The translations under genes and the position numbers were made by a program. 64,000 nucleotides of DNA from IMG/VR virus record IMGVR_UViG_3300020045_002401, positions 1 through 64,000 of that record; one strand, given 5' to 3'. The stretch's first letter is position 1; the number at the start of each line of letters is the position of its first letter. Of the stretch, positions 5,809 through 60,800 are shown piece after piece. The DNA comes from a virus (lineage: Duplodnaviria; Caudoviricetes). The notes under the pieces are model-generated. The model made no database searches. It saw only the letters and a program-made list of their open reading frames with translations, and had not been told where the DNA came from.

Positions 5809-6388
5809 AATGGTCTAATTCGTTAATAGGATAAAAATCATTATCATATAAATATGCAATTACCGCCGTCTTATCTTCTAAAGCTACAAATTTAATATCC
5901 TTAATTTGTCTAGGTAACATTTGCTTATAAGCTTTTTCTGGGTTAAGACTTCTATACTTAAAATTAACAGTAACTTTATCTCCAATCATAAATCTAGTAC
6001 TAGAATGTTTAATAATATCATAATGATTAGGATATAAATTAGGTACTATATCAACAATATCAACTGTAGATTCAGATACATTAATAAAATCTTCAAAAGT
6101 TTCTAAATCACTTTCTTCAATTTTACTAGTAGAACTTAATATAACAAAAACTTTAGGATATAATTCTCTCTTTCTATAAGTTTTATAGTCTTTAAGAGTA
6201 GTAATTATTACTTTAGGTTTTACTACGCGTTTAGGTTTAATAATTACTTTTTTAACAGTAGCTTCTCCTTGTGCATTGGCACTTTCTAAACCTATGTCGG
6301 TTAAACTCTCTTCTATGGGCAAAGCTCTGCCTTTAGGAAAGGGTGTATTCGGGTTTATAAGAGATTTAAAATTCTTCTTTTGTTCCAT
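5795..6388 (-). CDS. Hypothetical protein
   Basis: 197 aa ORF tightly packed between polymerase and helicase genes. Confidence 0.65.
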   Translation of the reverse strand: MEQKKNFKSLINPNTPFPKGRALPIEESLTDIGLESANAQGEATVKKVIIKPKRVVKPKVIITTLKDYKTYRKRELYPKVFVILSSTSKIEESDLETFEDFINVSESTVDIVDIVPNLYPNHYDIIKHSSTRFMIGDKVTVNFKYRSLNPEKAYKQMLPRQIKDIKFVALEDKTAVIAYLYDNDFYPINELDHYDTN

Positions 6389-6395
6389 ATATTAA

Positions 6396-8717
6396 TTACT
6401 TTACCCAATGTTGGGCTGTCACATGGTCAGCTTTAATTGTTACGTTATGTAAATAACGGTTAGCAACAGTTACCATAATATCATTTTTGGCTTCTGCAAT
6501 ATCTTTATAAAATTCACCTTTTTTAAATTTATGAGGTAAAAGTTTAGGGTCTATATTAGGATTAAATTCTAATAGTAAATCATCACTAACTTTATCTACA
6601 ATTTCATCATGAATCCATAATAAAATTTTAGCTTTAAGTTTACGTTTACGATAGTAGGTTCCTAATACTACACTAGCTTCTTTAACAAAATCAGCTTGTG
6701 TACCTTGTATTCTAATGTTTCTAGCGGCCGATTCTTCTCCACTTATTTCTAAGAAATGAGTCTCTTTACTTATTTCTCCTTTAATTTGTTTAATAAGATT
6801 AGGAAACCAAGCTCTAGAATTAGTACGATAATTTAATATAACAAAACCTTGAGCAGCAGCAGCTGTACTAGCGGCTTTAACCATTCTAAATGTATCAGGC
6901 AATTCTTTCTCAATAGTTTGTATTACTATACTCCCTTCTTCTTTAGGAATATTAAGTGTGGCACCTGCTTTTTTTGGGTACATACCATAAATAGTACCAA
7001 ATGTCATACCTTTAAATGATTTTCTATATCCAGGAGGGTTTTCTTTAGTAACTATAAAGTTTTTCCCTAAATCTACTAATTTTTCCCATTCACTTTGTAA
7101 TGCTTCTTTAATACTACCAACAACTTTATTTAATTGTTTGTATATATTACCAGCCCTACGTTTGTAAATGTTTTTCCAACAGATAGTAGCCATATAGCTA
7201 TGCATATCTATTTTAGAAAGATTAATAAGTTTAAAATCTTGAGCATGAGAAGCCATTACAATTAATTCAGCACCTTCATAATCATCTGTACCTAATTTAA
7301 AACCGGGAGGAGCAATAAAACAACTTCTATATTTAATATCAGCAGGAACATTTTGTGATTGAAATTTATCAGGTTCTCTTTTACCTCCACCTGATTGCAT
7401 TCTACCTGTTTCAGCGTGACATTGTCTATAAATAGTATGCATTTTACCTGTAATAGGATTGATTTTATTAATATAGTTAAGACCGTAATTATTAATTTTA
7501 GTATTAACTTCACTAAATTTATCAAATAAAAGAATAAATTCTTTCATAATAGTATCAGGTTTATCTACTAAATATTTTTCAAAGCCTACAGTACTAACAG
7601 TATAATAATTTGAACCATTAACAATTTGTCCTTTATCAGTAATCATAGGGATACCATAACCACTTTCAATTGGTAAAGGTTGATTTAATCTACCAAATAT
7701 ACGAATTATTTCAGAAGGAGAATTATAATCAGGATTTAGATTACTATCTTCTTTATAATCTTTTTTATTGGTTAAAGCTTTAATAGTAGCAGGTTCACCA
7801 AATAAATCTAAAGTATTAGTGGTTTTATCACTATTAATTAGTATACTAGCTTGCGCAGGACGTCTAATTTCATTGTATTTTTTACCTCCTAATGTTAGTA
7901 ATGGCGATAAACCTTTATACAGTTGTTTAGATGCAACAATATCTCGTATCCTACGAAGTTCTGCATCCATAGCTAATTGTAATTCAAATTTCTTAGCTAT
8001 ATTTTCATTTAAAATTTCAGTCCATTTTTCAACATCAAAATCTATTCCCTCATTTTCACTATCAGCTAATATAGATATTAAAGGAAATTCAATACCATAA
8101 ATAAGAAATTCCATTTTGAACTGCTTAATTTTAGGACGTTGTACTTGTCTTATTTTAAGCGGGTCATTAAGGTCGTTAGCTAAATATTTAATATGATGGT
8201 ATTCAACATTAAATGTAGTAGGGTTTTTATCTACAAATTCTAACCTAGTATCTTTATCTCTATATTCTTTAAGATATCTTTTAACAAGTTCTCCTAAGTT
8301 ATTATATTGATAATACTTCATATATAGACGTTGCTCTGCAAGAATAACATCATATACACGAGTTAATAATAAATTATACTTAGCAAGTATAAACTTAATA
8401 TCAAATTTAAGATTAGCACCACATAATACAATTTTATGTTTAATAATATGTTCGTAAAGAAATGTAAGATTAACATCATGAGCAAATATAAATTTATTAG
8501 CCATAGTACCTATACCTGTTAACATAATCTCATTAACATAAGGGTCTAAACCAGTAGTTTCTAAGTCAAAAGATTGAAGTTTTACTCGTCCTATTACATT
8601 ATGGTACATTCTTTTACCATAAGCTTCATCTATAATAACCATATCTTCAAATTCTTTAATAGTATGATTAAGACGTTCTCTATAGTATTCTGGTTTATTA
8701 GTTACAAAATATATCAT
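6396..8717 (-). CDS. polA: Family A DNA polymerase with 3'-5' exonuclease
   Basis: ExoI FDLETTGLD, ExoIII YLANDL, HQCHAETGRMQSG-type motif, motif A DYEGAEL, motif B RKSFKGMTFGTIYG, motif C IHDEIV. Confidence 0.93.
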   Translation of the reverse strand: MIYFVTNKPEYYRERLNHTIKEFEDMVIIDEAYGKRMYHNVIGRVKLQSFDLETTGLDPYVNEIMLTGIGTMANKFIFAHDVNLTFLYEHIIKHKIVLCGANLKFDIKFILAKYNLLLTRVYDVILAEQRLYMKYYQYNNLGELVKRYLKEYRDKDTRLEFVDKNPTTFNVEYHHIKYLANDLNDPLKIRQVQRPKIKQFKMEFLIYGIEFPLISILADSENEGIDFDVEKWTEILNENIAKKFELQLAMDAELRRIRDIVASKQLYKGLSPLLTLGGKKYNEIRRPAQASILINSDKTTNTLDLFGEPATIKALTNKKDYKEDSNLNPDYNSPSEIIRIFGRLNQPLPIESGYGIPMITDKGQIVNGSNYYTVSTVGFEKYLVDKPDTIMKEFILLFDKFSEVNTKINNYGLNYINKINPITGKMHTIYRQCHAETGRMQSGGGKREPDKFQSQNVPADIKYRSCFIAPPGFKLGTDDYEGAELIVMASHAQDFKLINLSKIDMHSYMATICWKNIYKRRAGNIYKQLNKVVGSIKEALQSEWEKLVDLGKNFIVTKENPPGYRKSFKGMTFGTIYGMYPKKAGATLNIPKEEGSIVIQTIEKELPDTFRMVKAASTAAAAQGFVILNYRTNSRAWFPNLIKQIKGEISKETHFLEISGEESAARNIRIQGTQADFVKEASVVLGTYYRKRKLKAKILLWIHDEIVDKVSDDLLLEFNPNIDPKLLPHKFKKGEFYKDIAEAKNDIMVTVANRYLHNVTIKADHVTAQHWVK

Positions 8718-8726
8718 AAGTGTAAG

Positions 8727-9038
8727 TTAAAATGGTTGTCCTTCAACAGGGTAAATATGTTTTTCTAATTTATATAGAATATTAGTAACAGTTTTCATTC
8801 TAAGAGTTTGATGATTATCATCAGGGTAATCAAAGTGAAGATTACATAAAGCTTCTAAGAAAATAACTTGTCTATATTCTATATATTCTATAATTTTACT
8901 CATAAGGTAATCAAGAGGTACAGGACTATATAGTTGTTCAAATTTAACAGCTTTATCTTTAGTATGAAAAATTTCAAGTCCTATATAAGTATTAGGGTAT
9001 TTAACTTTAATGTTAGCAATATAGTCTTTTGCAGTCAT
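8727..9038 (-). CDS. Hypothetical protein
   Basis: 103 aa ORF in operon spacing. Confidence 0.65.
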   Translation of the reverse strand: MTAKDYIANIKVKYPNTYIGLEIFHTKDKAVKFEQLYSPVPLDYLMSKIIEYIEYRQVIFLEALCNLHFDYPDDNHQTLRMKTVTNILYKLEKHIYPVEGQPF

Positions 9039-9040
9039 AA

Positions 9041-10408
9041 CTAATTATCATAAAATAATAAAGTTTTACTTGTACGAGAAGCTGCAACATATAATAAACT
9101 ACGTCTAGTAAAAGGATGAAAACACTTTTTAAAAGAAGGTATATAAATACCTACATTATTATATGTAGAACCTTGACTTTTATGAGTAGTTTGACAATAA
9201 CCATAATCAAAGTCTTTTTTACATACTTTATCATTATAGTTATTAAATACTTCATAATTAACAAGAAGTTTGTTTTTAAATTCATAAAAAGGTTTCCAAC
9301 TTCTAAATTGTACACCATTAGTATGACGTTGTACAAGTTCTATTTCAAAATCTATTTTACTATCAGGATGTAACATAGTTAAAATTTGACTATTACCTAC
9401 AACAGTACATTCGTAAACTTTGTAATATTGTTTTAATACTTTAATTTCTTTAATTTGTACATCTTTAATAATATAATCTTCTGAATTTCTAATATGACTA
9501 GAATAATAAGGAGGAACATCTGTTTCCTCTCCTACTGTATTATAACCTTTAATTATATCCCCTGGAGCTATAAGTTCAACAGAAGGATTAAGTCTTTTTC
9601 TTAAAAACCCGTTTACAGCTGTAACTGTAGTATTATCAAAAGCTAATAATTTAGTATCATAAGGGTCTTGATGTGCTTCTTCACTCTTATAATGTTTAAG
9701 AATTTCTTCTATATATGCCGGACCTTTACGTAATAAATAACCTTCTCCTAATTCATTAAAAGTATCTTGTATTTTTAATACTTTTGGTAAAAAGAAATCA
9801 GTACCATTAATTACATCTTGGGTAGCAGTATAGATTAATTCATTAACAGGATTACTATCAGCTTGTCTAACAATTTCTGTTAAAGCAACTTGAGGATAAT
9901 CTGTAAAAGTCGGACTTATTTTAAAGTCGGTTTTATTCTTCTCTACGGGCGGGAGTTGATATTTATCTCCTATGAATAATATCTTTACTTTGTATTCTTT
10001 AGAAAGCTTTTTAATTAAGTTATTAATATAACCTCCAATCATAGAACATTCATCTATTATAACTACGTTATATTTTGATATTCGTTCTTGACCTTGGGGC
10101 ATAAACATAACATTAGTTGGGTCAAAGTCTTCCATATTAGTATTAGGTCGTAAACCTAATAAGGCTTGAATTGTTTCACCTGGATAACCTGTCATTCTAT
10201 TAATAACAGTTTTTGCTTGGTGAGTTGGAGCAGAAACAGCAATTTGTCTTAAATTACTCTTTCTAATAATTTCTTTAACTGTTGTACTTTTACCACTACC
10301 AGCAGGACCAGTAAGAGTAATAATATCATTAGTTTCAAATTTATAAGGAGTATTAAGAAAATTTCCTACTACTTCAATGGCATTTAGTTGTCCACTAGTG
10401 AGAATCAT
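9041..10408 (-). CDS. RecD/Dda-like SF1B helicase
   Basis: GPAGSGKS, SAPTHQA, IIDECSM, GDKYQLPPV, THKSQGSTY, LYVAASR. Confidence 0.92.
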   Translation of the reverse strand: MILTSGQLNAIEVVGNFLNTPYKFETNDIITLTGPAGSGKSTTVKEIIRKSNLRQIAVSAPTHQAKTVINRMTGYPGETIQALLGLRPNTNMEDFDPTNVMFMPQGQERISKYNVVIIDECSMIGGYINNLIKKLSKEYKVKILFIGDKYQLPPVEKNKTDFKISPTFTDYPQVALTEIVRQADSNPVNELIYTATQDVINGTDFFLPKVLKIQDTFNELGEGYLLRKGPAYIEEILKHYKSEEAHQDPYDTKLLAFDNTTVTAVNGFLRKRLNPSVELIAPGDIIKGYNTVGEETDVPPYYSSHIRNSEDYIIKDVQIKEIKVLKQYYKVYECTVVGNSQILTMLHPDSKIDFEIELVQRHTNGVQFRSWKPFYEFKNKLLVNYEVFNNYNDKVCKKDFDYGYCQTTHKSQGSTYNNVGIYIPSFKKCFHPFTRRSLLYVAASRTSKTLLFYDN

Positions 10409-10643
10409 AAATTCTATTTGTTATTAAGTTAATCTCGTCTAAAGGGAAACAAGTAAATCGAAGTCTTTGCCTACGTATAACTTCAGCTTTAAGACTTTCT
10501 CTTATATCCTTTCTACGTCTTTGTACTTGAAAATGTATTCTTTTATCTCTACATAAAGCTTCATAATATATAATAGCATTATTAAGATAAGCATTGGTCA
10601 TTGTTGTAACATCAAGTTCTTGACCTTCTAAATTTATATACAT
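10395..10643 (-). CDS. Small hypothetical protein
   Basis: 82 aa; overlaps the helicase start in coupled fashion. Confidence 0.6.
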   Translation of the reverse strand: MYINLEGQELDVTTMTNAYLNNAIIYYEALCRDKRIHFQVQRRRKDIRESLKAEVIRRQRLRFTCFPLDEINLITNRIYDSH

Positions 10644-10648
10644 AGTAA

Positions 10649-10996
10649 TTAATTTAAGGATATAGTTGTAGATAGTAAATTTAGATTATGAAAATAAGTT
10701 AAAAGTAACTCTGTATCTACTTTATTAAAATCTTTATCTATTCCTTCTCTATATCTAGGATTAACGAGATTTCTAGCTATCATAGTATATTCAATCGGGT
10801 TTATAGAAGATATATATAAATGATTTACAGTTGCTAACATATTATATAAATATACTAACCTATCTGCATCAGGGTGTAGTTTTAGGTTAGTATATGTATT
10901 TTGCATATCCCATTTAATTACTAATATAAATAAAGCTTTAATTATCAAATCTTGTGGATTAGGTAATTGCTCTTGTGTAAAAGTTGTTAAATTCAT
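10649..10996 (-). CDS. Hypothetical protein
   Basis: 115 aa ORF in operon spacing. Confidence 0.6.
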   Translation of the reverse strand: MNLTTFTQEQLPNPQDLIIKALFILVIKWDMQNTYTNLKLHPDADRLVYLYNMLATVNHLYISSINPIEYTMIARNLVNPRYREGIDKDFNKVDTELLLTYFHNLNLLSTTISLN

Positions 10997-11023
10997 ACTA
11001 ATAATATTAGGAATTAATAGGTA

Positions 11024-11380
11024 TTACAGTTTCTCTTCTTCTATTTTAGCAAAAATAGTAGCTATATATATAGTAGCACATTTAGGGGCATCATATCCTT
11101 CAATAGGAAATGTGATAGGATTCATAGCAGAACGAGGAATCATAATAGTATCATTTACATTATATTCTACTATAATATCTTCATTTTTCTGATTTTTAGT
11201 CCAATATTGTCCTATACTTTTTACTACTTTAGCAAGTAAATAAGGGGCTCTATCTTTTTCTCTACTAACAATATCATCAGTTTTTATAACTGTACCTACC
11301 TGAGTATAAACTATAGGTTCTAAGATTTCAGCAATAAGTACATTTGGTTCTGTAATATTAATTTGTTCTAATTTAAGCAT
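11024..11380 (-). CDS. groES: Co-chaperonin GroES/Cpn10-like protein
   Basis: Pattern VLIAEI...VGTVIKTD...REK..P..AKVVKSIG...YNVNDTIM...IFAKIEE parallels GroES (mobile loop, GxVVAVG, VKVGDxV, ILAKI); 118 aa. Confidence 0.65.
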   Translation of the reverse strand: MLKLEQINITEPNVLIAEILEPIVYTQVGTVIKTDDIVSREKDRAPYLLAKVVKSIGQYWTKNQKNEDIIVEYNVNDTIMIPRSAMNPITFPIEGYDAPKCATIYIATIFAKIEEEKL

Positions 11381-11419
11381 AATATTTAAGTATTTATTTG
11401 TGTTATTAATTAAGGTTAT

Positions 11420-12139
11420 TTATAAATTATTTTTAATCCAATTATTTCCCCATTCATTTACTTCTTTCATTTCTTTAGGAGTAGGAGTTAAATTTCGTTC
11501 TGCAGCAAAAGATGATAAACCATACATAAAATTAAGTCTAATTTCTTCTCTATTCCAACTATCTTTTACTTTCTTAATAGTAATAGTATTGTCTTTAAGA
11601 TTTACTTTTAATCTTGTTCTCCAAGTACTAGAAGCATTTTTTATACTTCTACCATCAGTATTGTAATTAATATGGTGATGATTATATTCTTCATATTCAA
11701 CTAATACATCAGTAATAACTTCACCTTTATTATAAGATTCAATATATTTCTCAATGAATTGTTGTGATGGTTGAGGCAAGTTTTCTTCATAATAAGGACT
11801 ACCTGGTTCATTATTATTAATGTGTTTAATAGTTAATGAACTATCTGTTGTAACTATGATTTTATTACATAAGGTATTATTTATTTCGTGTCCTTTTGTA
11901 GTTACTATTCTCCATCCATTTTTAATACTTTTACATTGATATACAATGTTATTATATATAAACCAATCATCTCCTTTTATTTTATCATCTAAAATAATAT
12001 ATAAATGTTGAGGATGTTTATGAACATATCGTTTAGATTCTAAAGATAATATGTTAATGGATAAATCATCTATCTCTAAAGTAGAATCTTCGTCTTGTGT
12101 TGGTAATATTACCACTTGTGCTCTTTTAAACTGATTCAT
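11420..12139 (-). CDS. Hypothetical protein resembling a family common in flavobacterial phages
   Basis: PQHLYI..D..IK..DW, CNKII.TTD.SL, LPQPSQQFIEKY.E.YNKG, DNTITI.....W.REE; resemblance from recollection. Confidence 0.65.
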   Translation of the reverse strand: MNQFKRAQVVILPTQDEDSTLEIDDLSINILSLESKRYVHKHPQHLYIILDDKIKGDDWFIYNNIVYQCKSIKNGWRIVTTKGHEINNTLCNKIIVTTDSSLTIKHINNNEPGSPYYEENLPQPSQQFIEKYIESYNKGEVITDVLVEYEEYNHHHINYNTDGRSIKNASSTWRTRLKVNLKDNTITIKKVKDSWNREEIRLNFMYGLSSFAAERNLTPTPKEMKEVNEWGNNWIKNNL

Positions 12140-12167
12140 ATCATTTGTTTTTAAGATTATTAAGTTG

Positions 12168-12398
12168 TTAGTTATTGTATTGTTCTGCTTCTTCTATAGT
12201 ATTAGGTAAAACGCCATTTTTATATGTACCTATCCTAGTAAATAAGTAATTAGTATTTTCTATACTTTTAGTTATAGCATCTTCTTTGAAAAAATCATAA
12301 ACTTCTTCTTTTGTTAAGTCTTTTTCAATAATAGCATCAACAATAGTACTCCAAATAGAATACTTATCATCCTTCTGTTTTATTAATATACGTGCCAT
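12168..12398 (-). CDS. Small hypothetical protein
   Basis: 76 aa ORF preceded by an AT-rich leader. Confidence 0.6.
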   Translation of the reverse strand: MARILIKQKDDKYSIWSTIVDAIIEKDLTKEEVYDFFKEDAITKSIENTNYLFTRIGTYKNGVLPNTIEEAEQYNN

Positions 12399-12611
12399 AA
12401 TGTTATTTATTTAATTATTATTATTATTATACAAATTAGTTCCCCTATTGGGTCTGTAGATACTTGGTTATTTTCGAAAGAGATAAACATAAATGGTTAT
12501 CATAATTGCTATCTATAAGGACTATGGTGACACCTTTAATTTATATAATAAGATAATAGGGTTGTGAACTATATACCACACTTAGCGAATTACTACTGTA
12601 ATAAGACTCTA

Positions 12612-12932
12612 TTATTCTATATCTACAAAACCTTTAGGAAAGTAATGTAAATCTTCTTCTTTAAATTCTTTGTGGTAATCAGTAAAGAACTTATCACCAA
12701 AATATTCAAAAGCTTTCTTTCTTCCTTCTTGTGCATCTTTTACTTTATATCTAGCAATAGTATCACAATCTAATGTTTTACCGTTAACTCTATGAGTATG
12801 TTTTTGTCCAAATGTAACGTAATGATTTACAAGTTGTATTTCTTCCTTAGGTTTACATTTATCACATAATCCATCATTATTTTGAAATTCTTCTGTAGTA
12901 ATAGGTTTACCACAATGTTCACAATGTGCCAT
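12612..12932 (-). CDS. Small protein with N-terminal CxxC...CxxC zinc-ribbon motif
   Basis: CEHC-(14 aa)-CDKC at the N-terminus. Confidence 0.65.
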   Translation of the reverse strand: MAHCEHCGKPITTEEFQNNDGLCDKCKPKEEIQLVNHYVTFGQKHTHRVNGKTLDCDTIARYKVKDAQEGRKKAFEYFGDKFFTDYHKEFKEEDLHYFPKGFVDIE

Positions 12933-12959
12933 AATATTATATTTATTGTTGTTGTTGTA

Positions 12960-13450
12960 TTAGCACCCTCTTTCTTATAACTTTCCAAGCTTCACAGGCT
13001 TACTTGTTGTTGCTTCATAGGCTAAACAAGTTTATAAGAGTAGGGTCACATAGTTAATAGGTCAATTGTCTTGTTCCGTAACTTTTCATTAACTACTTGC
13101 CGAGAACTCATTTGTGTAGGTATAACATAATATACTATCATCTTTATACAACTCTCTAACTGTATCTACACATCTAGGATTACTCCATACTATAAGATTC
13201 TTCGTAGCTCTTATATTCATATCGCACGCAGGGTATTATATATCCTGTCAATTCAGGATTAGTATCTTTATGTAATAACATCCAGTAAATCTATACTGTT
13301 ACATTTCTTATTACATCAGGTATTCAATGTTTAACCTGTTTAAGTCCGACTATACGGTTTAAATTCTATATCAATTTCATACAGAATTTAAGTCTTGAGT
13401 TGCACTACTATAATCCTTACTTCAGTTTTATCTATCGTTCAGGGTTATAA
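12960..13450. ncRNA. Candidate structured non-coding RNA (unclassified)
   Basis: About 500 nt without a >=60 aa ORF; at least five local stems and one long-range 8-bp pairing seen by eye (see findings). Confidence 0.4.
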
Positions 13451-13454
13451 TATA

Positions 13455-13631
13455 TTAAATTATATCTAAATTGTGTCTAGCAGGTTTATATCTACCTATA
13501 AATTTTAATTCTCTATGAATAGGTTCACCTGTAGGGCTACCGTTACGATTTAATTGATAAGCTAATCTTCCTTTAGTAAGTTTAGTAGATTTTTCTAATG
13601 AAAGAACTTGTGTTGCTTTATTTCTAGCCAT
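13455..13631 (-). CDS. Small basic protein (58 aa), not in ORF track
   Basis: Hand translation MARNKATQVLSLEKSTKLTKGRLAYQLNRNGSPTGEPIHRELKFIGRYKPARHNLDII; starts 11 nt after the upstream stop. Confidence 0.6.
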   Translation of the reverse strand: MARNKATQVLSLEKSTKLTKGRLAYQLNRNGSPTGEPIHRELKFIGRYKPARHNLDII

Positions 13632-13642
13632 AATTCTAATTG

Positions 13643-13978
13643 TTAAGTTAATTGTTCTATAAATTGTTCTAAGTATTCTATTCTTTTATTCTCTAAATCT
13701 GAATGTATACGTATAGAGCCTAAAATATTTAATACTTCTTTTGTTAATTCAGGAAAAGCAATAGGTGTTTCTTTCCAATCCCAATCTTCTCCATTAGGAG
13801 CATTATCTAAATAATTATTTAACTCCCATAATAATATAGGAAATAATAAACATAATCCATAATGTTTACCTACTAAATCTTTAGTATACTTTACAGATTC
13901 TAAAGCTTTAATATAGACTTCTAATCGTATATCTTTAGGTACTTCTTGTTTTAGATTTAATATATGTTTGTTTATCAT
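13643..13978 (-). CDS. Hypothetical protein
   Basis: 111 aa ORF in operon spacing. Confidence 0.65.
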   Translation of the reverse strand: MINKHILNLKQEVPKDIRLEVYIKALESVKYTKDLVGKHYGLCLLFPILLWELNNYLDNAPNGEDWDWKETPIAFPELTKEVLNILGSIRIHSDLENKRIEYLEQFIEQLT

Positions 13979-13980
13979 AA

Positions 13981-14307
13981 CTATATCTTTCTTACCATTC
14001 TACTTGCAGTTCTAAAGAAGGCTTTATGTAATTGAATAACAATATCTTGTCTATAAGCTATAAGAGTAGCTTCACCAGGAACAATTCTATCTGTTATATT
14101 AATTTCTACTACAGTACCTACTATATCTTTTAATCTATTAGAACTACCTGTTAATTCGGGGTATGCACATATTATTATACATTCTTCTAATTGTGGGTCA
14201 TATATACCGTTTTCTTTTACTGTTAAAGAAGAACCGTCTATTACTCGTACTCTATCTCCAACTTCTAATTGTTGATGATATTCTTTTATTTCTAATGATT
14301 TTTTCAT
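13981..14307 (-). CDS. Hypothetical protein (possible KOW/SH3-like fold)
   Basis: LEVGDRVRVIDG...GTVVEI pattern. Confidence 0.6.
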   Translation of the reverse strand: MKKSLEIKEYHQQLEVGDRVRVIDGSSLTVKENGIYDPQLEECIIICAYPELTGSSNRLKDIVGTVVEINITDRIVPGEATLIAYRQDIVIQLHKAFFRTASRMVRKI

Positions 14308-14364
14308 ATTATTTAGTGTTTATTGTGTTATTATGTTATTGAGATTTTGACTACATTACTATTG

Positions 14365-14577
14365 TTACTTGGTATCTTTGTAATTAAGTGTACTAGTAAG
14401 TTTTGTTGTCAATATTTTAGTAAACCAATCATCAAAGTTACCATAATCAATTTTAGTTTCCTTAATTATATCATTATAACATAATTCATAACCAGCTTCA
14501 AAAGCTGATGCTAACACAGCTATAAATTCTTCTTTAGTTAATTCTGTTTTATTAATAGTAGGATTTGTTTTAGCCAT
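14365..14577 (-). CDS. Small hypothetical protein
   Basis: 70 aa ORF. Confidence 0.55.
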   Translation of the reverse strand: MAKTNPTINKTELTKEEFIAVLASAFEAGYELCYNDIIKETKIDYGNFDDWFTKILTTKLTSTLNYKDTK

Positions 14578-14638
14578 AATATTAGTATTAGGTTAATTAA
14601 TATATTTAAGAATATGTCGGACGATATTAGTAGAACTT

Positions 14639-14692
14639 GCCCATAGAGATAGATTAATTCGACTTTACTCGTTATACTTCTCTACTATGGGC
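14639..14692. promoter_or_regulatory. Intergenic dyad of the CG-N14-TAYGGGC motif
   Basis: GCCCATA-N14-CG-N8-CG-N14-TATGGGC, symmetric spacing. Confidence 0.7.
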
Positions 14693-14719
14693 AGTCTACC
14701 GTTCAACTACACAACAATC

Positions 14720-14965
14720 TTATTCTACAGCTTTTAATATATTATTAAACTCTTGTAGATTACTTATTCTACCATTAAATTTAATATTGGTAGTATCACT
14801 ATTTGCTATTCTAACTGAATGAGGTCTTTTAGTATGATTAGTAATAATCCAACTTACAACCATTAATGTTGTTACATTATAAGCTGATACAGCTTCTTCT
14901 TCTTTTCTATCTAAGACTTTAAAGCCTTTATCTTTTAAATATTGTATTACTACTTTATAGTTCAT
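14720..14965 (-). CDS. Small hypothetical protein
   Basis: 81 aa ORF. Confidence 0.6.
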   Translation of the reverse strand: MNYKVVIQYLKDKGFKVLDRKEEEAVSAYNVTTLMVVSWIITNHTKRPHSVRIANSDTTNIKFNGRISNLQEFNNILKAVE

Positions 14966-15330
14966 AATAGTTAGTTATTAGGTTAATTTTATTTAGCACC
15001 ATTATTACTTTAGTCACTCCTACTTAAAAGGTAGACACTTATATAATCTAATGGTCTAGCTGGTAACTCCTGCTATAATCATTAAGACATAATATATAAT
15101 AGGAACAATGTCAAGGAAGTCCGTATTAATATTTATCTTTAAGTTCACTCTCAAATACCATTTCAAGTGTTATAGCCCATCCCTTATGTATTCGGGTATG
15201 GTTTATTCTGTATAATTACTGCTCACATAGTAATCTTATACGAGGACATAGGTTTATCCTTTATTTAAGTATTGACGGTAATATTAGTAAATGGGAATAA
15301 ACTAATATAAGGTAATACTCTTTATTGTTA

Positions 15331-15453
15331 TTATATTAAAAGCATTAAAAGCTTTTCTACTGATACTGATAAGGCTAATATCATAACTGTTGTACTACCT
15401 AGTAGTACTATTGTATATAAACTATATACAACCGTTTGTTTAATTGTTTTCAT
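15331..15453 (-). CDS. Small hydrophobic membrane peptide (40 aa), not in ORF track
   Basis: Hand translation MKTIKQTVVYSLYTIVLLGSTTVMILALSVSVEKLLMLLI; starts 12 nt after the upstream stop. Confidence 0.5.
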   Translation of the reverse strand: MKTIKQTVVYSLYTIVLLGSTTVMILALSVSVEKLLMLLI

Positions 15454-15465
15454 AGTAGGTTAGTA

Positions 15466-15654
15466 TTAAAGGTTAACAAATCTATGTCCTATTGTATTAT
15501 AATTAATAGGATTAAAATACTTAACAATTTGAATATTCATACTGTTAAGAAGGTTAAGGGTTTTACGTGTTTTAACACTTGTAGAAGTAACTATTGTGCC
15601 TTTAGCAATTCTAGGTCTTCTTTGTTTTGTTGTTGTATTTGTAGTTGTGCTCAT
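15466..15654 (-). CDS. Small basic protein
   Basis: 62 aa, Thr/Arg/Lys-rich N-terminus. Confidence 0.55.
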   Translation of the reverse strand: MSTTTNTTTKQRRPRIAKGTIVTSTSVKTRKTLNLLNSMNIQIVKYFNPINYNTIGHRFVNL

Positions 15655-15688
15655 AATATTAATTAGGCGTTAAAATGTGTTTATATAT

Positions 15689-16045
15689 TTAAACACAAAA
15701 GTTAAGATTGATTTTATTTCTATTTTTTAATTCAATATAAAGATACTTGGTAGAATATATATGGATAATATTATTAATAGCATCTAAAGCCTGTTTTGCT
15801 CTAAGTTTAGCATATTCTGTATTCTTATCTTTATATGTATTATAAATACTAGTAAATAAATTATATGATTTATACTTTTTATTATCTGTTAAGTATAATT
15901 TAATTAGGTCGTGCGATACTTCTATTAAAGTATCTGAACTGTCAGTATTATGTACAATTGAAGAATTATCTTTATGTTCAATGATATAATCATTTCTTTT
16001 AAGTATATGTTCAATAGTAGAAAGGGAAACTTTAAAATAGTCCAT
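15689..16045 (-). CDS. Hypothetical protein
   Basis: 118 aa ORF. Confidence 0.6.
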   Translation of the reverse strand: MDYFKVSLSTIEHILKRNDYIIEHKDNSSIVHNTDSSDTLIEVSHDLIKLYLTDNKKYKSYNLFTSIYNTYKDKNTEYAKLRAKQALDAINNIIHIYSTKYLYIELKNRNKINLNFCV

Positions 16046-16074
16046 ACTTAGTAGGTGTTAAATTTAAAGTAGAA

Positions 16075-16212
16075 TTATACCCAATGAGTCTTCTTGTATT
16101 CTTTATCACGTACATTAATTTGTTCAATAGGACAAGATGGATTAGAAGGTTTAGACTTAGGGTATAATTTATACTTTAATTGGGTTAGTAATTGAAATAT
16201 GTTATTGAACAT
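16075..16212 (-). CDS. Small hypothetical protein (45 aa), not in ORF track
   Basis: Hand translation MFNNIFQLLTQLKYKLYPKSKPSNPSCPIEQINVRDKEYKKTHWV; start overlaps the upstream stop. Confidence 0.45.
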   Translation of the reverse strand: MFNNIFQLLTQLKYKLYPKSKPSNPSCPIEQINVRDKEYKKTHWV

Positions 16213-16531
16213 ATTCACTTTCTTTTTCTAGTTGAGGTTCATACATAGCTAATAGATTAACAGTAGTATGAAAATTAATCTCTTCTTGAAGTACACTAAC
16301 ATACTCTTCCATAGTATTAATATCAGCAGGGTGACCATAAGATAATTTATCTCTCATTTCTTCCTTGATTTCTCTAATATTAGCTGTACCTAATAATTTA
16401 GCTAATCTTTGTATTACTGATAAGGGTACAATAGCAGCTTGACTTGTTGACTGTGGTGTAAAGTCTAATACTTCTTTACCATTTACTTGTACAATTGGTA
16501 CTTGTACATTTGTTTTTGCTTCTGTTTTCAT
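16202..16531 (-). CDS. Hypothetical protein (109 aa; start reassigned to MKTEAK)
   Basis: The longer track ORF (to 16744) overlaps the 84-aa gene; ATG at 16531 lies 7 nt after that gene's stop. Confidence 0.6.
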   Translation of the reverse strand: MKTEAKTNVQVPIVQVNGKEVLDFTPQSTSQAAIVPLSVIQRLAKLLGTANIREIKEEMRDKLSYGHPADINTMEEYVSVLQEEINFHTTVNLLAMYEPQLEKESEYVQ

Positions 16532-16538
16532 TGTGTAA

Positions 16539-16793: not shown

Positions 16794-16820
16794 AATGTGT
16801 GTAATTAGATTAATATTAAG

Positions 16821-17081: not shown

Positions 17082-17153
17082 AGTATATATATTATGATTA
17101 GTAATAAGATATGTAGTTTTAACTTAATATTACTACTATATCGGATGGAGGTG

Positions 17154-17184
17154 CAAAGGTAGGGTTTTGTTTGAGAATGTTAAA
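17154..17184 (-). promoter_or_regulatory. Bacteroidota-type sigma70 promoter
   Basis: Minus strand TTTA-19 nt-TACCTTTG(CA); -7 box is a perfect TAnnTTTG, -33 box has one mismatch. Confidence 0.65.
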
Positions 17185-18845: not shown

Positions 18846-18867
18846 AAGCTATTCCTATAAGCAGGAA

Positions 18868-51826: not shown

Positions 51827-54800
51827 ATGGCTTTAAACAATGACACAAATCAAGGCGACAATCTTGAGTCAAACCTAATTGAAGATTCTACTGGTATCGT
51901 AGGTGCAAAAGACTTATCAGATATTAAGCCAATAGAAGAAGTTAAAAATAAAGAACTAGAAGCCAAAATAAAGGCTCAAGTAGCAGACTTTACTCCTGCT
52001 AAAATTGAACCTTCTGTTAAGATATTACCTCCTGAGTATTCAGGGGGTAAATCTGTTTCTAGCCCTACCACTCAAGAAGTAGTAGATAAATATGGTAAAA
52101 TTCCAGATAATGAAAAACGTATAATTACATCTTCATCTGATACTGCTCCAGAGTTATCTCAACCTAGTTTTCTTGATACTATTGTTAAAGTCGGGCAAGG
52201 TGATACTAGTATTAGTCGTCCTATTGACCAGTCTATTAATTATGATGAATATAAAGATTACTTATCTAAGAATCATTCTTACTTTGATACTGAAACAGGG
52301 TTAGATAAACTTAGGGCGCAGAATCAAAGTGAAGGTATGCAAGTTTTAAATGCAGGATTAAGAGTTCTTGCTAATGTTATACCTGAAGGTATTAAACAAA
52401 CAGCTAATGCTTTTGATTTAGAACATTTAAATGCTGCTGAAGATGGTATAGGTAATATAGTTGCTGATACTATGACTGAATGGCAAGATTCTGTTAAAGA
52501 TACTTTACCTATTTATAGAGAAAATCCAGGTAAAGCCTTAGACTTTACTGACCCTGCTTATTTAGCTGAAACTTTAGAAAGTTTAGTAACTAGTATAGGA
52601 GGTTTTGTATTAGCAGGTTATGCTACAGGTGGTGCAGCAAGTACAGTGGGTAAAGCTATTGGTGGAACAGTTGAATTAGCTTCTACTATTAATTTAGGTA
52701 AAAAAGTAACTGATGGTATTAAATCTTCTACATCTTTTCAAAATGCTTTAGCTAGTGCTAAAGCTGCTAATATAGGTTCTAAAGCTGAATCTCTTGCTGT
52801 TAACTTTTTATTAAATCAAGCAGAAGGTAGAGGTATAGGTGCACAAGTATATGCTGATGTATACCAAAGAGAATATAATACTGCTTTAGCTACTGGTAAG
52901 TCATTAGAAGAAGCTAAAGAAATTGGTAAAGATAAAGCAGGTAAAGCTGGTGTAGCTGCTATTAACTTTAATAGAGTTACAATGCTTCTTAATGTTACTT
53001 CTTCTGATTTATTTTTACAATCTCCTAAAAATGTTGGTAAATTAATTGAAAAAGGAGGAGTTAAACAACTTTTAAAAGAAGGTGGACAAGAAGCAGGAGA
53101 AGAATACATTAATGATTTAGCTCAAATGTATGGAGAAGGTTTAGATACTGATAAACCATTAACATTTAAAAATTCTATTGCACATTTAGCTACAGCTGAA
53201 GGTATAGAATCTCCTATATTAGGTTTTATTGGTGGTGCTGGACAAACTGCTTTAACTAAAGCAGGTAAATATATTCAGTCTTCTTCCAATGAATCTTATA
53301 TGAGGCATTTTAATCAGTATATAATGGAGCACCCTATAGATGGTGCTAATAAAGATTCTATTATAGCTTCTGCTACTAATTATGCACAACAACAAGCTGA
53401 TAAAGATAAACCTTTAGGTTTTGTTAATAGAGGTAATGCAAGTGCTGATAGAACTTCTACTGCTCAACAACTTGAATCTTTATATGTTGCTCAACAATCT
53501 AATTTAGAAGATTATAAAAAGGCAACTTTAGCTGATAGTATGAATGACGTGGTAAATGCGACCATTTCCAGCTCATTTTCAGTCGATTTAATGAATCAAA
53601 TTAAAAACGACCCCACAATGCTCCAAGAGCAAAAAGATAATCTCTTAGAACGTTCCCTGTTAAGCCACCAAGCTTATATCGCACTTCAAGTTGGCACAGA
53701 AAATCAACTTAAAGATTTGTATCGTACATATGCAAATATGGATGAAGATACAGCTAAACAAAGAGGTATGTTTAATGGTGAATCTAAAGATGATATTAAT
53801 TATTATAAAAATAAAGCAGAAAGAGCTATTAAAAGTATAGAGAATTTTGAGAAAAATTATACTAGTAGTAAACAATATGTTAATAGTGGAGAAGTATATG
53901 ACAGATTAAATAATAATTATTTTAATGTTAGAGATGTTGAAGAGTTAAGTAAAAAACATAATGAATTACTTTCTAATATTAATGAATTCTCTCGTGATTT
54001 ATATGAACAAGAAGGTAATGAAGAAGCTTTAGAAGATGTAGCAAATAGAAGTGCTGAAGGTAAAGCTATTGTACATCCTAGTTTATGGGAGTCTAAAATG
54101 GAAGAAGACTTTAAAGATATACAAAAAGCTTTAAAAGTTGCTAAAGATAGTAGAGTTAAAAATGCTATACAACTTAATACTATAATGTCTACTAAGTATA
54201 ATCAAGAACTTAGTGAAACTATTAATTTATATAGAATTAAACAACAAGGAGAAAGAGTTAAAAAGAACAAAGTTGCAGGAATAAGTAATACATTTGGTAA
54301 AGTATTTAGTAAAAGTAAAGAAGTAGAAAATCGTGCTAATACTGTAAAAGAGCCTAAGACAACTAAGTCGAATGAGTCTTCTACTACGGGCAAGGCACAA
54401 ACGACAAAAGCTAAACCTACATCTGTACCTAATAGTACTCAAGTAGCTCCAACTGCACAAAATAATTACACTCCTCCACTTGTTAGTAATACTACTACAC
54501 AAAATAATAGTGTTAATGATGTAAATAATAATCCTGATTTATTCAGTTTTAGTTATTCTGTTCCAGGTGCTAGTGATGTTATGAAATCTTTTATAGCTTC
54601 TGATAATAAAAAGATTCATGTAATATTAAAAAGTCAATATTCTTTACAAGCTAAAATAGATAAACTTAATGAAATACTTAGTGATAAAATTAATTATGAA
54701 ATTAAGGAAACACCTTTAATTGCTCCAGATGGCGAAGCTGTAACTCAAAAATCTATAGATGTTATACAGGCTAAAATAAAAGAATTACATAATTATAAAG

Positions 54801-57800
54801 AAGATTTTTCTCCTGATGTAATTGATGAACAACAAGCTTATGAAAGTGACATAGTAGATTTTGGTTTAGATTTAGAGGAATATCAATTGAATGTTGCTAA
54901 TAGAGCAACTGAAGATGGTGATATAACTACTAGTACTTTTGATGTACTTACTTCTAAGTTTAATATTTATAGTGCTATATTAGATCAAATGGCTAAGAGA
55001 GGTATAGATACTACAAGTCTTGATGATGTAATGACAGAATTTAAGACTATACTAGGTACTAAATTACTTAAAGCTGAATTTAATTCTTTACAAGGATTAT
55101 TTAACTTTGCTAACAATACTACTGAGAATAGTACTTATGCTGATTTATTTAATTCTGATAAAGATAATAATAATGATTTAGATAATTTTAATAAATTAGC
55201 AAAAGTTAATATTCAAACTGGAGAGTTTACATATGATTTAGATAAAGAATCTAGAATGGCTATGCAAACTACTAAACAAGGTATTATTATAAATAATCCT
55301 GATACTGAAGTTAAAGGTTTAGCTTACCCTATTTATAATGAAATAGGTAGAGATAAAATAGCATATCTTGCTCAAAATTATTCTAAAGTTATTACTAAAC
55401 AAACTAATGAAGACGGGCAAGAATATTATGAAGTAGATAAAGTTACTGTTGAAAATACTATCAATTCTGCTTTAGACCCTACTGTATTAGAAGAAGATTA
55501 TTTTAAAGAAGGAGATAGTATTACATTTATACCTTTGGATTCCTTTACAGATGAAGAGGGGAATGTCGTTCTAGCGAAAGACTTGCCCGTAGGAGAAAGA
55601 CCTATCGGGGTTATCAAAGATGGGGAGTTAGTTAAAGGTTTATATTTACATACAACTTCTTGGATTACTGCTGAAAATATTACTAATACACCTGCTAATA
55701 TTGAAGCTGATAGACAATCTTTATTTAATTTACGTGAACGTATTATTAATGGAGAACAAGTTACTACTATAATTAATGATGTAACTACAGGGGCTCCTAT
55801 TTCTAGTGCTAATGGGGAAATGAATACTTTTGCTAATGAATTTCCTGAACACCCTGTTGGTGTAGTACGAAATGGACAATTAGAATTAGCTAATGGTAGA
55901 ATAGAATCTTATCCTGAATTTTTACATTTTGATGAAGGTGATGTTGTATCTATTGTTAATGGCTATTATTATTATGGTAGTAGAACTAGATTATTTAGTC
56001 CTATGAGAGTTGCTATTTTATCTAGTTTAACTGCTTTTGCTACAGCTACTCATACACAAGGTTCTGAATTTTTATTAAATAAAACAGGTAAAGATTTACT
56101 TAAACCTAAAGGAGTTGAGTCATATTTACGTGATTTTATCTATACTGCTCCTATTGCTATTGATAATGTTTATCCAACTAATTTAGAAGAATTTAGAAAT
56201 GCTTTACAAACTATAGGAGAAGATAGAGTTATTGTTAATTTTATTGGTAATAGTTTTTATATCGGTAGGGGTGGAGCATTAGATGTTTTTACTTTATCTG
56301 CCGGACAATATAAAGGTAATGCTGAAGCTTTGGAATATGTACTCTCTCAAATTGAGGCTTTGCTACAAGATGCCTATGCTAACGTTAGTTTACAATCCTT
56401 AACTAGTAATAATCCATTACATATTATTAGTGAACAAGGAGTATCTAAAACTTTTGATACTTATGAAGATTATGTAAAACAAGTTTCTGTTTCTCCTTAT
56501 GTATCTATTACACTACCAAGTGGAAATAAAATTACTACTATACAAAAAAGAGTAAGTTTTGATATTCCCGATATAGAACAAAATTCTGATAAAGTAGCTA
56601 GTACTGTAACTAAAAAAGGTACACCTAAAAAACCTAAAACTAAGAAAGAAATTATTACTACTGAATCAGGTAAACAACAAGTTATTGAATTTACAAGTTT
56701 AGATACTGATAGTAATGAAATTAATTTTGATGATGTTACAGAAGATTTTAGTCCTTTAGTTATTAACACTTCAGATATGTCACCTGATGTACAAGATGAA
56801 GCTTTAGAGTCCCCTTCTTATATAAATGGTATTTCATTAGAATTACAAGAAGCTGTAGTACATGATTTAGTACAAGAATATTATAATTTATTATTACAAA
56901 ATAGAGGTATAGATGTTCCTATAGTACCTTTAGAACAATTTTTTGATTCTAAAGTAGCTTTTTTTAATGATGTAGTTGCTAAAGCGGAAGCTATTAATCA
57001 TCCTAATTATAATAAATTAGCTTTACAAGTTCAAACTATTACTAATAATAAAGCGCAATTTCTTAATATAACTAGACAACAATTAACTAGTGAATTAAAA
57101 GTTAAAATTACTGATACAGCTTTAGTTTTAGAACCTGTTGATGTAGATATTAACACTACTTTAGAAAATGTAGATGCTCCTGATGGTGTAGAATTAGAAG
57201 ATGTACAAGAAGATTCTAGAATTTATTCTATGAATGAATTTGCTATAGACCCTAAAACTCAATTAAGTTATGAAATAAAAGCTTTATTGTATGGAGTTAT
57301 AGATGCTAAATTAGCTTATAAAGAAGGTGTACCTAATATTGTTCCTAGAAAATTAGGTTTACAAATTCCTTTATATGTAAATCCTAATGCTGTTTATCAA
57401 GATTTAATGATGTTATTCTCTAAATCTAGTATAAATGATGGTATGGATACTTCTAATTTTTCTTCTAATCCTGATTCTGCATTATTACCTAAGATTCAAA
57501 TAGCTATTGAAATATTAAAATCTCAATATACTACTAAACCTTATTATGCTAATGTTGTTAAGAAACTTGAAGTTTTAGATACTAAAACTCAAATACAATT
57601 TATTACTACTTTTAATAAAAATAATACTGACCATTTAAAAGTAATAGAATATGTAGATAAATCAGGAGAAGGAAAAGCTTTAAGACTTATTAGAAATAAT
57701 AATCAAAATGCTCATGACCAACTTATAAGTTCTTGGAGTGAAACAGTAAAAGCTATTGGTGGATATATACCAGGAGTTAATAATATAGAATTAGATGATA

Positions 57801-60800
57801 AGTTATACCAAGCTTTTACTAATGCTTATAATCAAATGGCAGGTAATGTAGCTTTACATACTTATGATAATTTTAAAGTATTATTTGCTTTAGTAGGTAT
57901 AAATTTATCTGTAGATGCTTTTGAAAAACTTCGTGATGGTACTTATGTAAATGGTCGTATTAAATCTATAACACAACAATTTGAACATACAGATGGTTGG
58001 TTAAAAAGAATGAAAGATAGACTAGTTTTTATTAAAACTAATAACCTTGATGCTAATACTCTTCATAATAATGATGTATTTAAGGAACTTGCTGACTTTA
58101 TTTTAAAGTTTGAAAAATCTGTATTTAATACTTCATATAAGAATGGTAATGGTGATACTATTTATGGTGTTACTAATAACCGTTATTTTATGGAAAGACT
58201 TACTGGATTAAAGAATAATGCTAAGTTGTTAAAACAATTAGCTAATAATGCGTTTTCTTCTAAATCTTCTTGGTTATCTGAATTACTAAATTCAAACAAC
58301 GGTACAGTTAATAAAGGAAAGTTTCATTCTACTTTTAGTTATAATACACTAGATAGCTATACTACTAGAGCAAATAATAAGACTAAAATGGTTGATAGTA
58401 TGAATAGAAAAGAACTTATACAACTAAGTTTAAGTTTATTCTATAATGGTGGAGAAAGTTTATATAATAAAACTACTCCTATACATACTTTCATTATACC
58501 TGCTTTATCAGATAAAAGTAATATGTTTACTGTTAAGGCTCCTGGAAGATTTTATAATATGGTAAATAATAAACTATCTGAACAAGATTTAACTTATTTA
58601 CGTACACAATTATTTGAAGGTGAATTTCATAGAATAGTACAATCTACTGTTAAAGGTAATATAGGTACTAAAGGTTATGACCAAGGTTCACGTAAATTTT
58701 TAATGTTTCCTGAATTTAATAATATAGATGGTTTATTTATAGATGGTAACATTAATACAGAAGCTTTAGGGGATAGTGAATTAATAGAACGTATTAATGA
58801 TAAAATTAATGATTATATCAGTAATATAATATTTAAGACTTATCAAGATTGGTCTAATTTAGGTTTACTAAGACAAGGTAAAGAAAATGTTTATTCTGAT
58901 AAAATGTCTTTTATAGATACAGCTTATGCAACTGTAAGTAAATCTAATCCTAATAACTCTTTACAAGAAGCTTCAAGTGTAGTATTAAATTATACTGTTA
59001 ATTATCTTGTTGCTAATGCTAATATGCAACAATTAATATTTAATGACCCTGCTTTTTATTATAAAAAAGGTAAAAGAAATAGTGAAACAGGTGCAGATAT
59101 TACTACTGATATAGCAGAAACTTGGGATAATGTTACTAAACGGTATGCGGCTGTAAATGGGGGTAAAGATGATTTTGGTTTTCCTGCTGGTAGTAAATTT
59201 AGTGTACTTAGTATTAATGATACAAAAGTAACAAGTAACACTCTCGAATATCTATCTTCTCTATGGGCAGGTCATGCCTTAGAAAAAGAAGTTATAGACA
59301 CATATTCTAATATGGAACCTGGAGATGCACAAGAATATACTTCTTTAGAAGAGCATTTAGATAGAATGGTATATAGTTCTATGATAGCAGAAGATAAAGC
59401 TAAACGTATATTAACTACTTATAATAAAACAGGTAAAGTAAGTAAAAAAGATTTAGGTGCTTTATTAATTAACTTTAAGCCTTTATATTTTAATACTTTT
59501 ATGGGTACTAAAGGTGTAATGGAAACTGTTTACATTAAAACCTCTAGTTTTCCTTTAATTAAAGAACTTACTAAAGGTACACAGTTAGATGAATTAAGAG
59601 AGTATTTAGATAATCCTAAAAATAAAGTTAAAGTAGCTGTATTTGCATCTGGTATTAAAGCTGGTAACCCTGCTGAGAGTTTAGATTTATTTGATTCTAA
59701 AGGTAATATGATTTCTGGAGCCTTAAAAGGTAAGTTAGATAACTTTATTCTTAAAGATTTACCAAGAGAAGGTCACGGTAATCAACAATCTAATCCGGAT
59801 AAAAGTAAATCTACAGTTATTAATGATGGTACTCAACAAGCTAAATTAATATTTACTAACATACTTGATGTACAAGGTTTTAAAAATCCATTTGGAGAAG
59901 GAGAAATTGGTGGTAGAGATTTAGCTACTATATATCTTAATAAATATGAAGAAAGATTTAAAATTAACTTTGATAAGTTAATGAAAGAATTAGGAGTTAA
60001 AAATGGAATAATTACTAATATAGCTAAACTTAAAAAGATACTTGTTGATGAAGCTACTACTAGAGGTTGGACTTTTAATGAAGCTTCTTCTTTTGAATTA
60101 GATACACTTGGTCTTAATTTTGAGATACCATTATGGATGTCTGTTTCTTCTAGTAAAATAGAAAATTTATTGTCTGCTATTGTAGATAATAGAATTAGAA
60201 AAAGAAAAAGATTTGGACGTTCTTATATATTAGCTTCTGAAGCTGGTATTAGAACATTTGATAAAGCTATTGATAATGATAATTCTGGTATAACTTTTAC
60301 TAGTGATTTTACAGGAGAACTTAGAAATAGTTTTAATAAAGATGGTGAAATGACTTCTGCTGAGATACTAGTACCTTTTAGATTTTATGATAATGAAGGT
60401 AATCTTCTTAGTATAAAAGATTTTATGATTGATAACCAACTTGATTTAACTAAATTACCTGCTAATTTATTAGAAGGCTTTGGTTATCGTATCCCTACAT
60501 CTGGTATTAACTTAATGTCTAATATTAAAGTAGTTGGTTTCCTTCCTGAATCATATGGTGATACTATTATAGCTCCTGCTGATTTTACTAAGCAAATGGG
60601 TTCTGACTTTGATGTTGATAAATTTTATAGTAGTTTATATGCTACATATTATAATAAAGAAACTAAAAGTTTAGAGAAACTAACACGTACTCATAATGAT
60701 AATAGAAATCAGATTATTGATAATGTATTTAAACTTAGAAATGATTTAAAACGTTTAACTAATTACAAAGGCGCTAAAAAAGACTTATTAATAGAAGAAA

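Follow-up and report, generated by a model that had tools for sequence, protein, structure and literature searches.

Few viruses of the human gut are as abundant as crAss-like phages, and the signals that direct their transcription and replication are largely unknown. Here, we examined a 64,000 bp stretch of phage DNA (the window), the first 64 kb of the 81,848 bp virus record IMGVR_UViG_3300020045_002401, whose whole sequence is referred to as G000. A first-pass annotation of the window, made from its letters alone, had pointed out a bipartite motif, CG-N14-TAYGGGC, that recurs throughout it. The motif is a polar, that is oriented, cis-acting signal under strong selection at the level of the DNA. 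The finding is also wider and stronger than first noted, as relatives, including cultured phages of gut Bacteroides, have their own variants of the motif. Literature searches by topic and by literal sequence found no description of any of these motifs, consistent with the earlier statement that none was known in crAss-like phages, and a genome-wide signal of this kind in this group is apparently undescribed.

In the window, the strict pattern CG-N14-TAYGGGC is found 11 times, each where the first-pass annotation had placed it, and not once in 100 dinucleotide-preserving shuffles. The 7-mer core TAYGGGC is present 21 times in the window, against 3.99 ± 1.79 expected. In the complete G000 genome there are 14 strict copies, while the reversed pattern, used as a control, has none. 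A weight matrix was built from the strict copies and then iterated, with a threshold above the best score in simulated sequence. It called 22 sites in G000 (14 plus, 8 minus) and yielded the 27 bp consensus CGAAT-N9-TCTnCTA[Y/A]GGGCAAG, within which the core CTA-N-GGGC is invariant; cores are near-identical among copies. The information content spans approximately 27 bp in two blocks, which bears out the bipartite structure originally proposed, and the sites are asymmetric and non-palindromic. The 20 nt 5' of the central TA are pyrimidine-rich and the 20 nt 3' of it are purine-rich, and no flanking unwinding element or composition signal was found beyond approximately ±20 nt.

The matrix recovered the TAAGGGC variant that had been reported at position 34915. 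Four of the copies that had been listed with near rather than exact spacing (28155, 39174, 46411 and 59245) were also called, but the one at 41612, though it has the core, scored below the threshold. The spacing of 3-10 kb between copies is correct and is more regular than expected by chance. The sites in the window are as follows.

6298-6324, plus strand: copy antisense in the gene at 5795-6388, abutting the copy at 6325 to form a convergent pair.
6325-6351, minus strand: copy of the CTAAAGGC variant, sense; absent from the first-pass list.
9928-9954, plus strand: single copy, antisense in a Dda-like helicase gene.
14635-14661, minus strand: intergenic copy, left half of a back-to-back divergent pair.
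14670-14696, plus strand: intergenic copy, right half of the divergent pair with 14635.
20138-20164, minus strand: copy in the gap between the divergent arms, facing the replication arm, approximately 650 nt before its first gene.
20287-20313, plus strand: copy in the arm-junction gap, facing the structural arm, 187 nt before its first gene.
28151-28177, minus strand: copy with N13 spacing, antisense and close to the portal gene's end; forms a divergent pair with the copy at 28418.
28418-28444, plus strand: copy in sense, 94 nt into the gene between the portal and capsid genes.
34915-34941, plus strand: copy of the TAAGGGC variant, sense.
39172-39198, plus strand: copy with N12 spacing, sense in an endolysin-like gene.
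42091-42117, plus strand: copy in sense.
46407-46433, minus strand: weak copy with N16 spacing, antisense.
47209-47235, plus strand: copy in sense in a gene for a 601 amino acid protein; orthologous site in all five genomes of the clade described below.
54369-54395, plus strand: copy in sense in the giant virion protein gene.
55581-55607, minus strand: copy antisense in the giant virion protein gene.
59246-59272, plus strand: weak copy with N15 spacing, sense in the giant virion protein gene.

When synonymous codons were shuffled within genes, strict copies numbered 5.08 against the 14 observed, and cores 6.04 against 22. Only the intergenic copies survive such codon-preserving shuffles; all coding copies are lost. 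In-gene copies favour the frames S-T-x-G-K when sense and L-P-x-E-E when antisense, and the peptides LPIEE, LPPVE, STTGK and LPVGE had been read correctly. A useful contrast is the second over-represented oligonucleotide in G000, ATGACCCT, which occurs 12 times in the genome, always in sense and always in one frame ([N/D]-D-P). We rejected it as a DNA signal and attribute it to a codon or peptide effect. Its copies in the window are listed here.

ATGACCCT, starting at 4561, 21626, 25230, 39396, 40907, 40937, 44250, 48319, 49140 and 59043.

Set against this sense-only, single-frame behaviour, the 27 bp motif is a feature of the DNA. Selection on the DNA, rather than on protein or mRNA sense, had been suggested at the outset, and we reach the same conclusion because the coding copies are lost on codon shuffling, because both orientations are used, and because relatives have lineage-specific variants at orthologous positions, where a glycine codon (GGC or GGG) tracks each genome's own motif.

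Four near-complete or long IMG/VR genomes, G001 to G004, were found as capsid-protein relatives and form with G000 what we call the clade. When 9-mers were compared with a third-order Markov expectation, the most over-represented 9-mer in each of seven genomes (G000 to G004, crAss002 and 'Rudgehvirus jaberico') was that genome's own variant of the motif. The proteins of G001 are mostly 45-90% identical to those of G000, and the two share the same motif. Conservation in relatives was borne out, as 16 of the 22 sites in G000 have an orthologously placed counterpart in G001. Identity between the two genomes is 0.69 in the motif and 0.63 in the flanks, a blunt measure because spacer positions are free. 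The strict G000 pattern had no match in the genomes more distant than G001, and a scan of IMG/VR with a G000-type pattern gave one match per stretch and no multi-copy contig among the matches listed. The matrix-called sites number 22, 17, 18, 23 and 24 in G000 to G004, respectively, and there are 30 sites each in crAss002 and R. jaberico, cultured Bacteroides phages of the Intestiviridae that have a motif of the same class. The variants are as follows.

G002: ACYAAC...TTCTTCTAAAGGCAAA
G003: CAACAC-TATCWTCTA[Y/A]GGGGGAAA
G004: TGGAWGnTTCTT[C/G]TA[T/G/A]AGGGAAAG
crAss002: CTCCT[T/C]TA[C/T]GGGGGAA
R. jaberico: CTCCT[T/C]TAC[A/G]GGGG[A/T]G.TTACA

Several positions are kept while the sequence changes. 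All five clade genomes have the site in the gene for the 601 amino acid protein (47209), in the variant proper to each, and it encodes S-x-x-G-K-F/Y there, with a glycine codon that is GGC or GGG to match the motif of that genome. The position of the 28418 site is kept in G001, G003, R. jaberico and crAss002; these sites lie approximately 1.1-1.3 kb upstream of the capsid gene, within the preceding gene, and all are in sense. G000, G001 and G003 also share a convergent pair that lies in the DUF932 gene and the next gene downstream. Orthologous genes at shared sites showed no change in length. As the relatives each have their own version, this is a genuine genome-wide signal, though its role in the cell is still a matter of inference.

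Further away, crAss001 (Steigviridae; MH675552) has a different dispersed 9-mer, CTTCTGGAG, with 29 exact copies on both strands, of which 13 are sense, 13 antisense and 3 intergenic. Its core contains CTGGAG, a type IIS/IIG restriction recognition sequence (BpmI/GsuI), which is here enriched, not avoided. No comparable dispersed oligomer was found in phi14:2; its best oligonucleotide, TATGGGAT, is a sense-only coding W-D-K motif and was rejected as a counterpart. Phages whose Bacteroides hosts are sisters have different motifs, so the reader is not an enzyme of the host. To judge from the variants, the reader is a phage-encoded protein whose specificity appears to drift with all copies following, and so the signal would be read by a fast co-evolving phage protein.

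The arrangement of the sites follows rules that the first-pass annotation had not seen, just as it had not seen that other crAss-like phages share the signal in changed sequence: orientation is non-random, and each strand has a regular series. All 12 of the same-orientation series tested were more regular than chance (coefficient of variation 0.19-0.58 against 0.83-0.92; P from <0.0002 to 0.04). Neighbouring sites are in opposite orientations in 118 of 157 pairs, with significance reached in six of seven genomes, and crAss001 shows the same in 20 of 28; regular spacing on each strand leads to such alternation. Neighbours less than 600 bp apart are opposite in 28 cases (19 divergent, 9 convergent) and never in the same orientation. 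Random placement gave 7.5 opposite and 7.1 same, and in 2000 simulations the count of 28 was never reached. The closest pairs adjoin but do not overlap, at T-to-T distances of 33-50 bp if divergent and 21 bp if convergent, and these abutting pairs suggest a footprint from approximately -20 to +10. Single sites had no hidden partner above background. Per-strand regular spacing and strict inversion of close neighbours are unusual rules of genome design.

In G000 to G004, R. jaberico and crAss001 (102365-/102416+), the large gap between the arms holds a divergent pair, each copy of which faces its own arm; in crAss002 such a pair is at the convergent junction instead. By hand count, with junction copies assigned to the arm they face, the clade has approximately 64 sense and 40 antisense sites, divided as approximately 40:20 in the structural arms and 1:1 in the replication arms. 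The ratio is also approximately 1:1 in crAss002, R. jaberico and crAss001. Some 20% of clade sites are intergenic, against approximately 5.5% non-coding DNA, and approximately 80% are intragenic. G000 has 14 plus and 8 minus sites, and strand use is near parity in the other genomes.

Among crAss-like phages G000 is distant, with a major capsid protein that shares 32% identity with its counterparts in the Bacteroides members of the group. Its TerL, portal and capsid proteins match crAss PHROGs. The genes form two divergent arms, a minus-strand replication arm (67927-81792 and 135-19494) and a plus-strand structural arm (20490-67825). The replication genes include a family A-type DNA polymerase, several helicases, among them a RecD/Dda-like one, an ATP-dependent ligase and a primase; some homologues of the primase carry Toprim_2, and a PDB search with it gave no match. 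Scans of approximately 60 open reading frames (ORFs) against Pfam, PHROG and NCBIfam found no T7-like RNA polymerase, no HNH, GIY-YIG or HUH nuclease and no sigma factor. Among the large ORFs scanned, the only RNA polymerase signature is a DFDVD in a 5332 amino acid virion protein. We read this protein as a crAss-type two-barrel virion RNA polymerase, and on that reading it would be a candidate reader of the motif. Five copies of the motif, four sense and one antisense, lie within its gene. Genes that bear on the alternatives are listed with it.

51827-67825 (the window ends at 64000), plus strand: gene for the 5332 amino acid virion protein, with DFDVD at residue 2927, inside the match to a virion protein PHROG.
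1719-2633, minus strand: gene for a 304 amino acid RecT/Bet-like annealing protein (protein atlas score 0.96).
22124-23571: exonuclease (PHROG 298) and PNK-type 3' phosphatase (PF08645) genes, which immediately precede that for the large terminase.

The 304 amino acid RecT/Bet-like protein had no Pfam or PHROG match and is conserved in crAss002 and R. jaberico. The exonuclease and 3' phosphatase, with the ATP-dependent ligase encoded elsewhere, look like a set for the healing and sealing of DNA ends. An ORF at 21014-21451 has a match to PF00216 (HU/IHF) at 21086-21223 (E 0.001, 15.7 bits), below the 22.4-bit cut-off.

Between the minus-strand junction copy and the first gene of the replication arm is a leader of approximately 650 nt without a long ORF (19495-20137, minus strand), which is 623-706 nt long in all five clade genomes. 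It holds a conserved GC-rich block at approximately 19590-19720 (CACCC...ACCCCC...TTYGG...ACCCCGT) with the potential to form a hairpin. The leader had no match in Rfam and may be a non-coding RNA or an origin element. Elsewhere in the tightly packed replication arm there are ORF-free stretches of 500-1050 nt at 12933-13454, 14966-15465 and 17082-18130, in which no tRNA and no Rfam family was found. The record has a 121 bp terminal repeat (1-121 and 81728-81848). As a repeat of the same length is present in the unrelated relative G004, it looks like an overlap from a circular assembly and not physical ends.

We tentatively favour the reading that the sites are starts for RNA synthesis by the phage's own virion RNA polymerase, both the reader and the event being put together from the evidence above. 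Each copy would then be an oriented recognition site of approximately 27-30 bp for a co-evolving, phage-encoded, sequence-specific enzyme, composed of an upstream specificity element, a pyrimidine tract, the invariant CTA, one free base, a G run and A-rich bases. The two-barrel polymerase would bind the upstream half, open the DNA at the TA step and start at the G run, and inverted pairs would act as bidirectional stations. The RNAs would be transcripts and possibly also primers for DNA replication; if they did prime DNA synthesis, the regular series on each strand and the inverted pairs would be natural.

This reading draws on the size, asymmetry and near-invariant core of the sites, on the G run that follows the TA, on the co-evolution and on the outward-facing pair at the arm junction. 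The intergenic excess (approximately 20% against 5.5%) and the sense bias of approximately 40:20 in the structural arms point the same way, as does polarity, in the form of the 28:0 close pairs, the 118 of 157 alternating neighbours and the regular strand series. The promoter sets of T7, T3 and SP6 co-evolve with their polymerases, like the single variant per genome here, and the G004 core, CTATAGGGA, equals positions -5 to +4 of the T7 promoter. In addition, the only polymerase whose promoter is yet unassigned is the virion RNA polymerase, and related two-barrel phage polymerases use conserved promoter motifs. Published work on phi14:2 found no common motif for early transcripts, and no promoter is known for the virion RNA polymerase of crAss-like phages. 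A hairpin of the N4-type promoter or ssi kind was considered and rejected, as the pyrimidine/purine pseudo-dyads, judged by eye, are weak and differ between variants.

A number of points weigh against start sites for the virion polymerase. Antisense sites make up approximately 40% of those in the clade and about half in crAss002, R. jaberico and crAss001, and most sites lie within genes; we know of no phage promoter set with such a layout. The sense sites have no link to gene starts. A virion RNA polymerase is expected to transcribe only early genes. Moreover, phi14:2 has the same polymerase yet is without such a motif, and the motif published for its middle and late promoters lies mostly between genes and in sense. 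In a broader form, it is possible, if rather doubtful, that many crAss-like phages, cultured ones of gut Bacteroides included, have a strand-specific grid of start signals over the entire genome, with a regular series on each strand and often back-to-back pairs, where a phage enzyme, whichever way the genes run, initiates synthesis of RNA or DNA or makes a cut in one strand. The most plausible reader of such a grid would be the QDE-1-like virion RNA polymerase.

We are more sceptical that the sites are bound by an architectural or regulatory protein of the phage, for example an HU/IHF-like protein at the head of the structural arm, though this deserves serious consideration. The genome would then be bent or anchored at regular intervals for condensation, for organisation of the replication compartment or for ejection. 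Even spacing and use independent of gene orientation fit this, and so does an asymmetric site of approximately 30 bp in which a flexible, kinkable TA sits between a pyrimidine and a purine tract. The ORF at 21014-21451 could supply the protein, but its HU/IHF assignment is below the threshold, and phi14:2 encodes an IHF-like protein without having the motif. An architectural role also needs no particular orientation, whereas orientation here is strongly non-random in both the close pairs and the alternation, and the cores are nearly invariant, unlike degenerate IHF-type sites.

It is unlikely that the sites are nicked specifically, on both strands, to provide swivels or 3'-OH starts for strand-displacement DNA synthesis. 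Known nick consensuses are likewise dispersed, lineage-specific and blind to coding, and those of phiKMV (CGAC-N5-CCTA/CTCCGG) and tf (TACT/RTGMC) are built like CGAA-N11-CTA/YGGGCA; LUZ19 has a nick motif that differs from its RNA polymerase promoter motif. A polar event on each strand would fit the two regular series, and the ATP-dependent ligase, PNK-type 3' phosphatase and exonuclease described above are also in keeping with it. However, the known systems nick one strand only while here both are used, and nicks at abutting inverted pairs 21-55 bp apart would come near to double-strand breaks in DNA of 28% GC. No nickase domain was found among the ORFs scanned, though a good many ORFs are still without an assignment.

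Still less probable is a Chi- or uptake-like signal, recognised in single-stranded form by a helicase-nuclease or recombination machinery of the phage, which would require at least one copy per few kb on each strand. Such a signal would account for a regular series on each strand irrespective of genes, in a distribution that resembles Haemophilus uptake sequences; the 3' half of the motif is G-rich, and among the phage's gene products are a RecD/Dda-like helicase, a RecT-like annealing protein and an exonuclease. Against this, Chi is a single block of 5-8 nt rather than approximately 27 bp in two blocks, and the excess of tight inverted pairs and the outward-facing junction pair would have no rationale. 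The reader would also have to be a phage enzyme and not a host one, given how the motifs differ between phages of sister hosts.

The parS-like or packaging-end role that the first-pass annotation had entertained found no support. The sites are asymmetric and dispersed, and a motif of the same class occurs in crAss002, a headful packager, and an analogous dispersed one in crAss001, which has short terminal repeats. Finally, the preferred frames of in-gene copies might suggest that the motif lacks a function, arising from codon usage or a frequent peptide or being a small mobile repeat, but this has a negligible chance of being right and we exclude it on the codon shuffles, on the spacing and frame analysis (non-coding copies in both orientations, at a regularity that it leaves unexplained), on the contrast with the genuinely coding-driven ATGACCCT and on the constant length of orthologous genes at shared sites.

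The signal is thus strongly selected, polar and lineage-specific, the top oligomer in seven genomes and with an analogue in crAss001. If start sites for the virion RNA polymerase are what it marks, it would be the first cis-element known for a QDE-1-like virion RNA polymerase, and the genome-wide bidirectional mode of initiation would be one undescribed for any phage. Cultures exist of crAss002, R. jaberico and crAss001, which makes the function directly testable. The motif may also serve as a marker with which to tell crAss-like lineages apart and to recognise pieces of their genomes in metagenomes.

Among known systems, the promoters of T7, T3, SP6, K11 and LUZ19 come close in form. They are asymmetric, approximately 20-25 bp long (a 20 bp motif in LUZ19) and present in 4-20 near-identical copies, with an upstream specificity block, a TA-rich opening region and a G start, and the crAss motif has the same build. 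From one phage of the phiKMV group to the next, the promoters change in sequence as a set but stay in place. However, G000 has no T7-like RNA polymerase gene in the scanned ORFs, only the two-barrel virion enzyme, and approximately 40-50% of the crAss copies are antisense, most are intragenic and they form two regular strand series. The nick sites of T5, phiKMV-like and tf/LUZ24-like phages share other properties with the motif, as they are dispersed, ignore gene orientation, vary by lineage and have conserved positions, and that of phiKMV is bipartite. Their function is unknown in the literature and the known sites are on one strand only, while the crAss motif, known here from sequence alone, is on both strands with alternation and tight inverted pairs.

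The uptake sequences of Haemophilus and Neisseria, and Chi, are also over-represented on both strands, lie in coding DNA in preferred frames and with spacing more even than chance, and form inverted pairs in intergenic DNA. Their readers are cellular machines and their copy numbers far higher, and to our knowledge nothing comparable to such arrays has been described for a phage genome. The ssiA and ssiB sites of RSF1010 are strand-specific start signals that form an inverted pair, one for each direction, but they are hairpins read by the RepB' primase, with one pair per replicon. The crAss motif has no conserved hairpin by eye, G000 has a TOPRIM-type primase, and there are approximately 14 stations. 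Mitochondrial promoters of yeast belong to another polymerase family and are intergenic and mostly on one strand. Nonetheless, the genome size, AT-richness and copy number are alike: a yeast mitochondrial genome of approximately 80 kb, rich in AT, has 20-30 short nonanucleotide promoters for a phage-type polymerase, and some of these lie in ori elements, in both orientations, where they prime replication.

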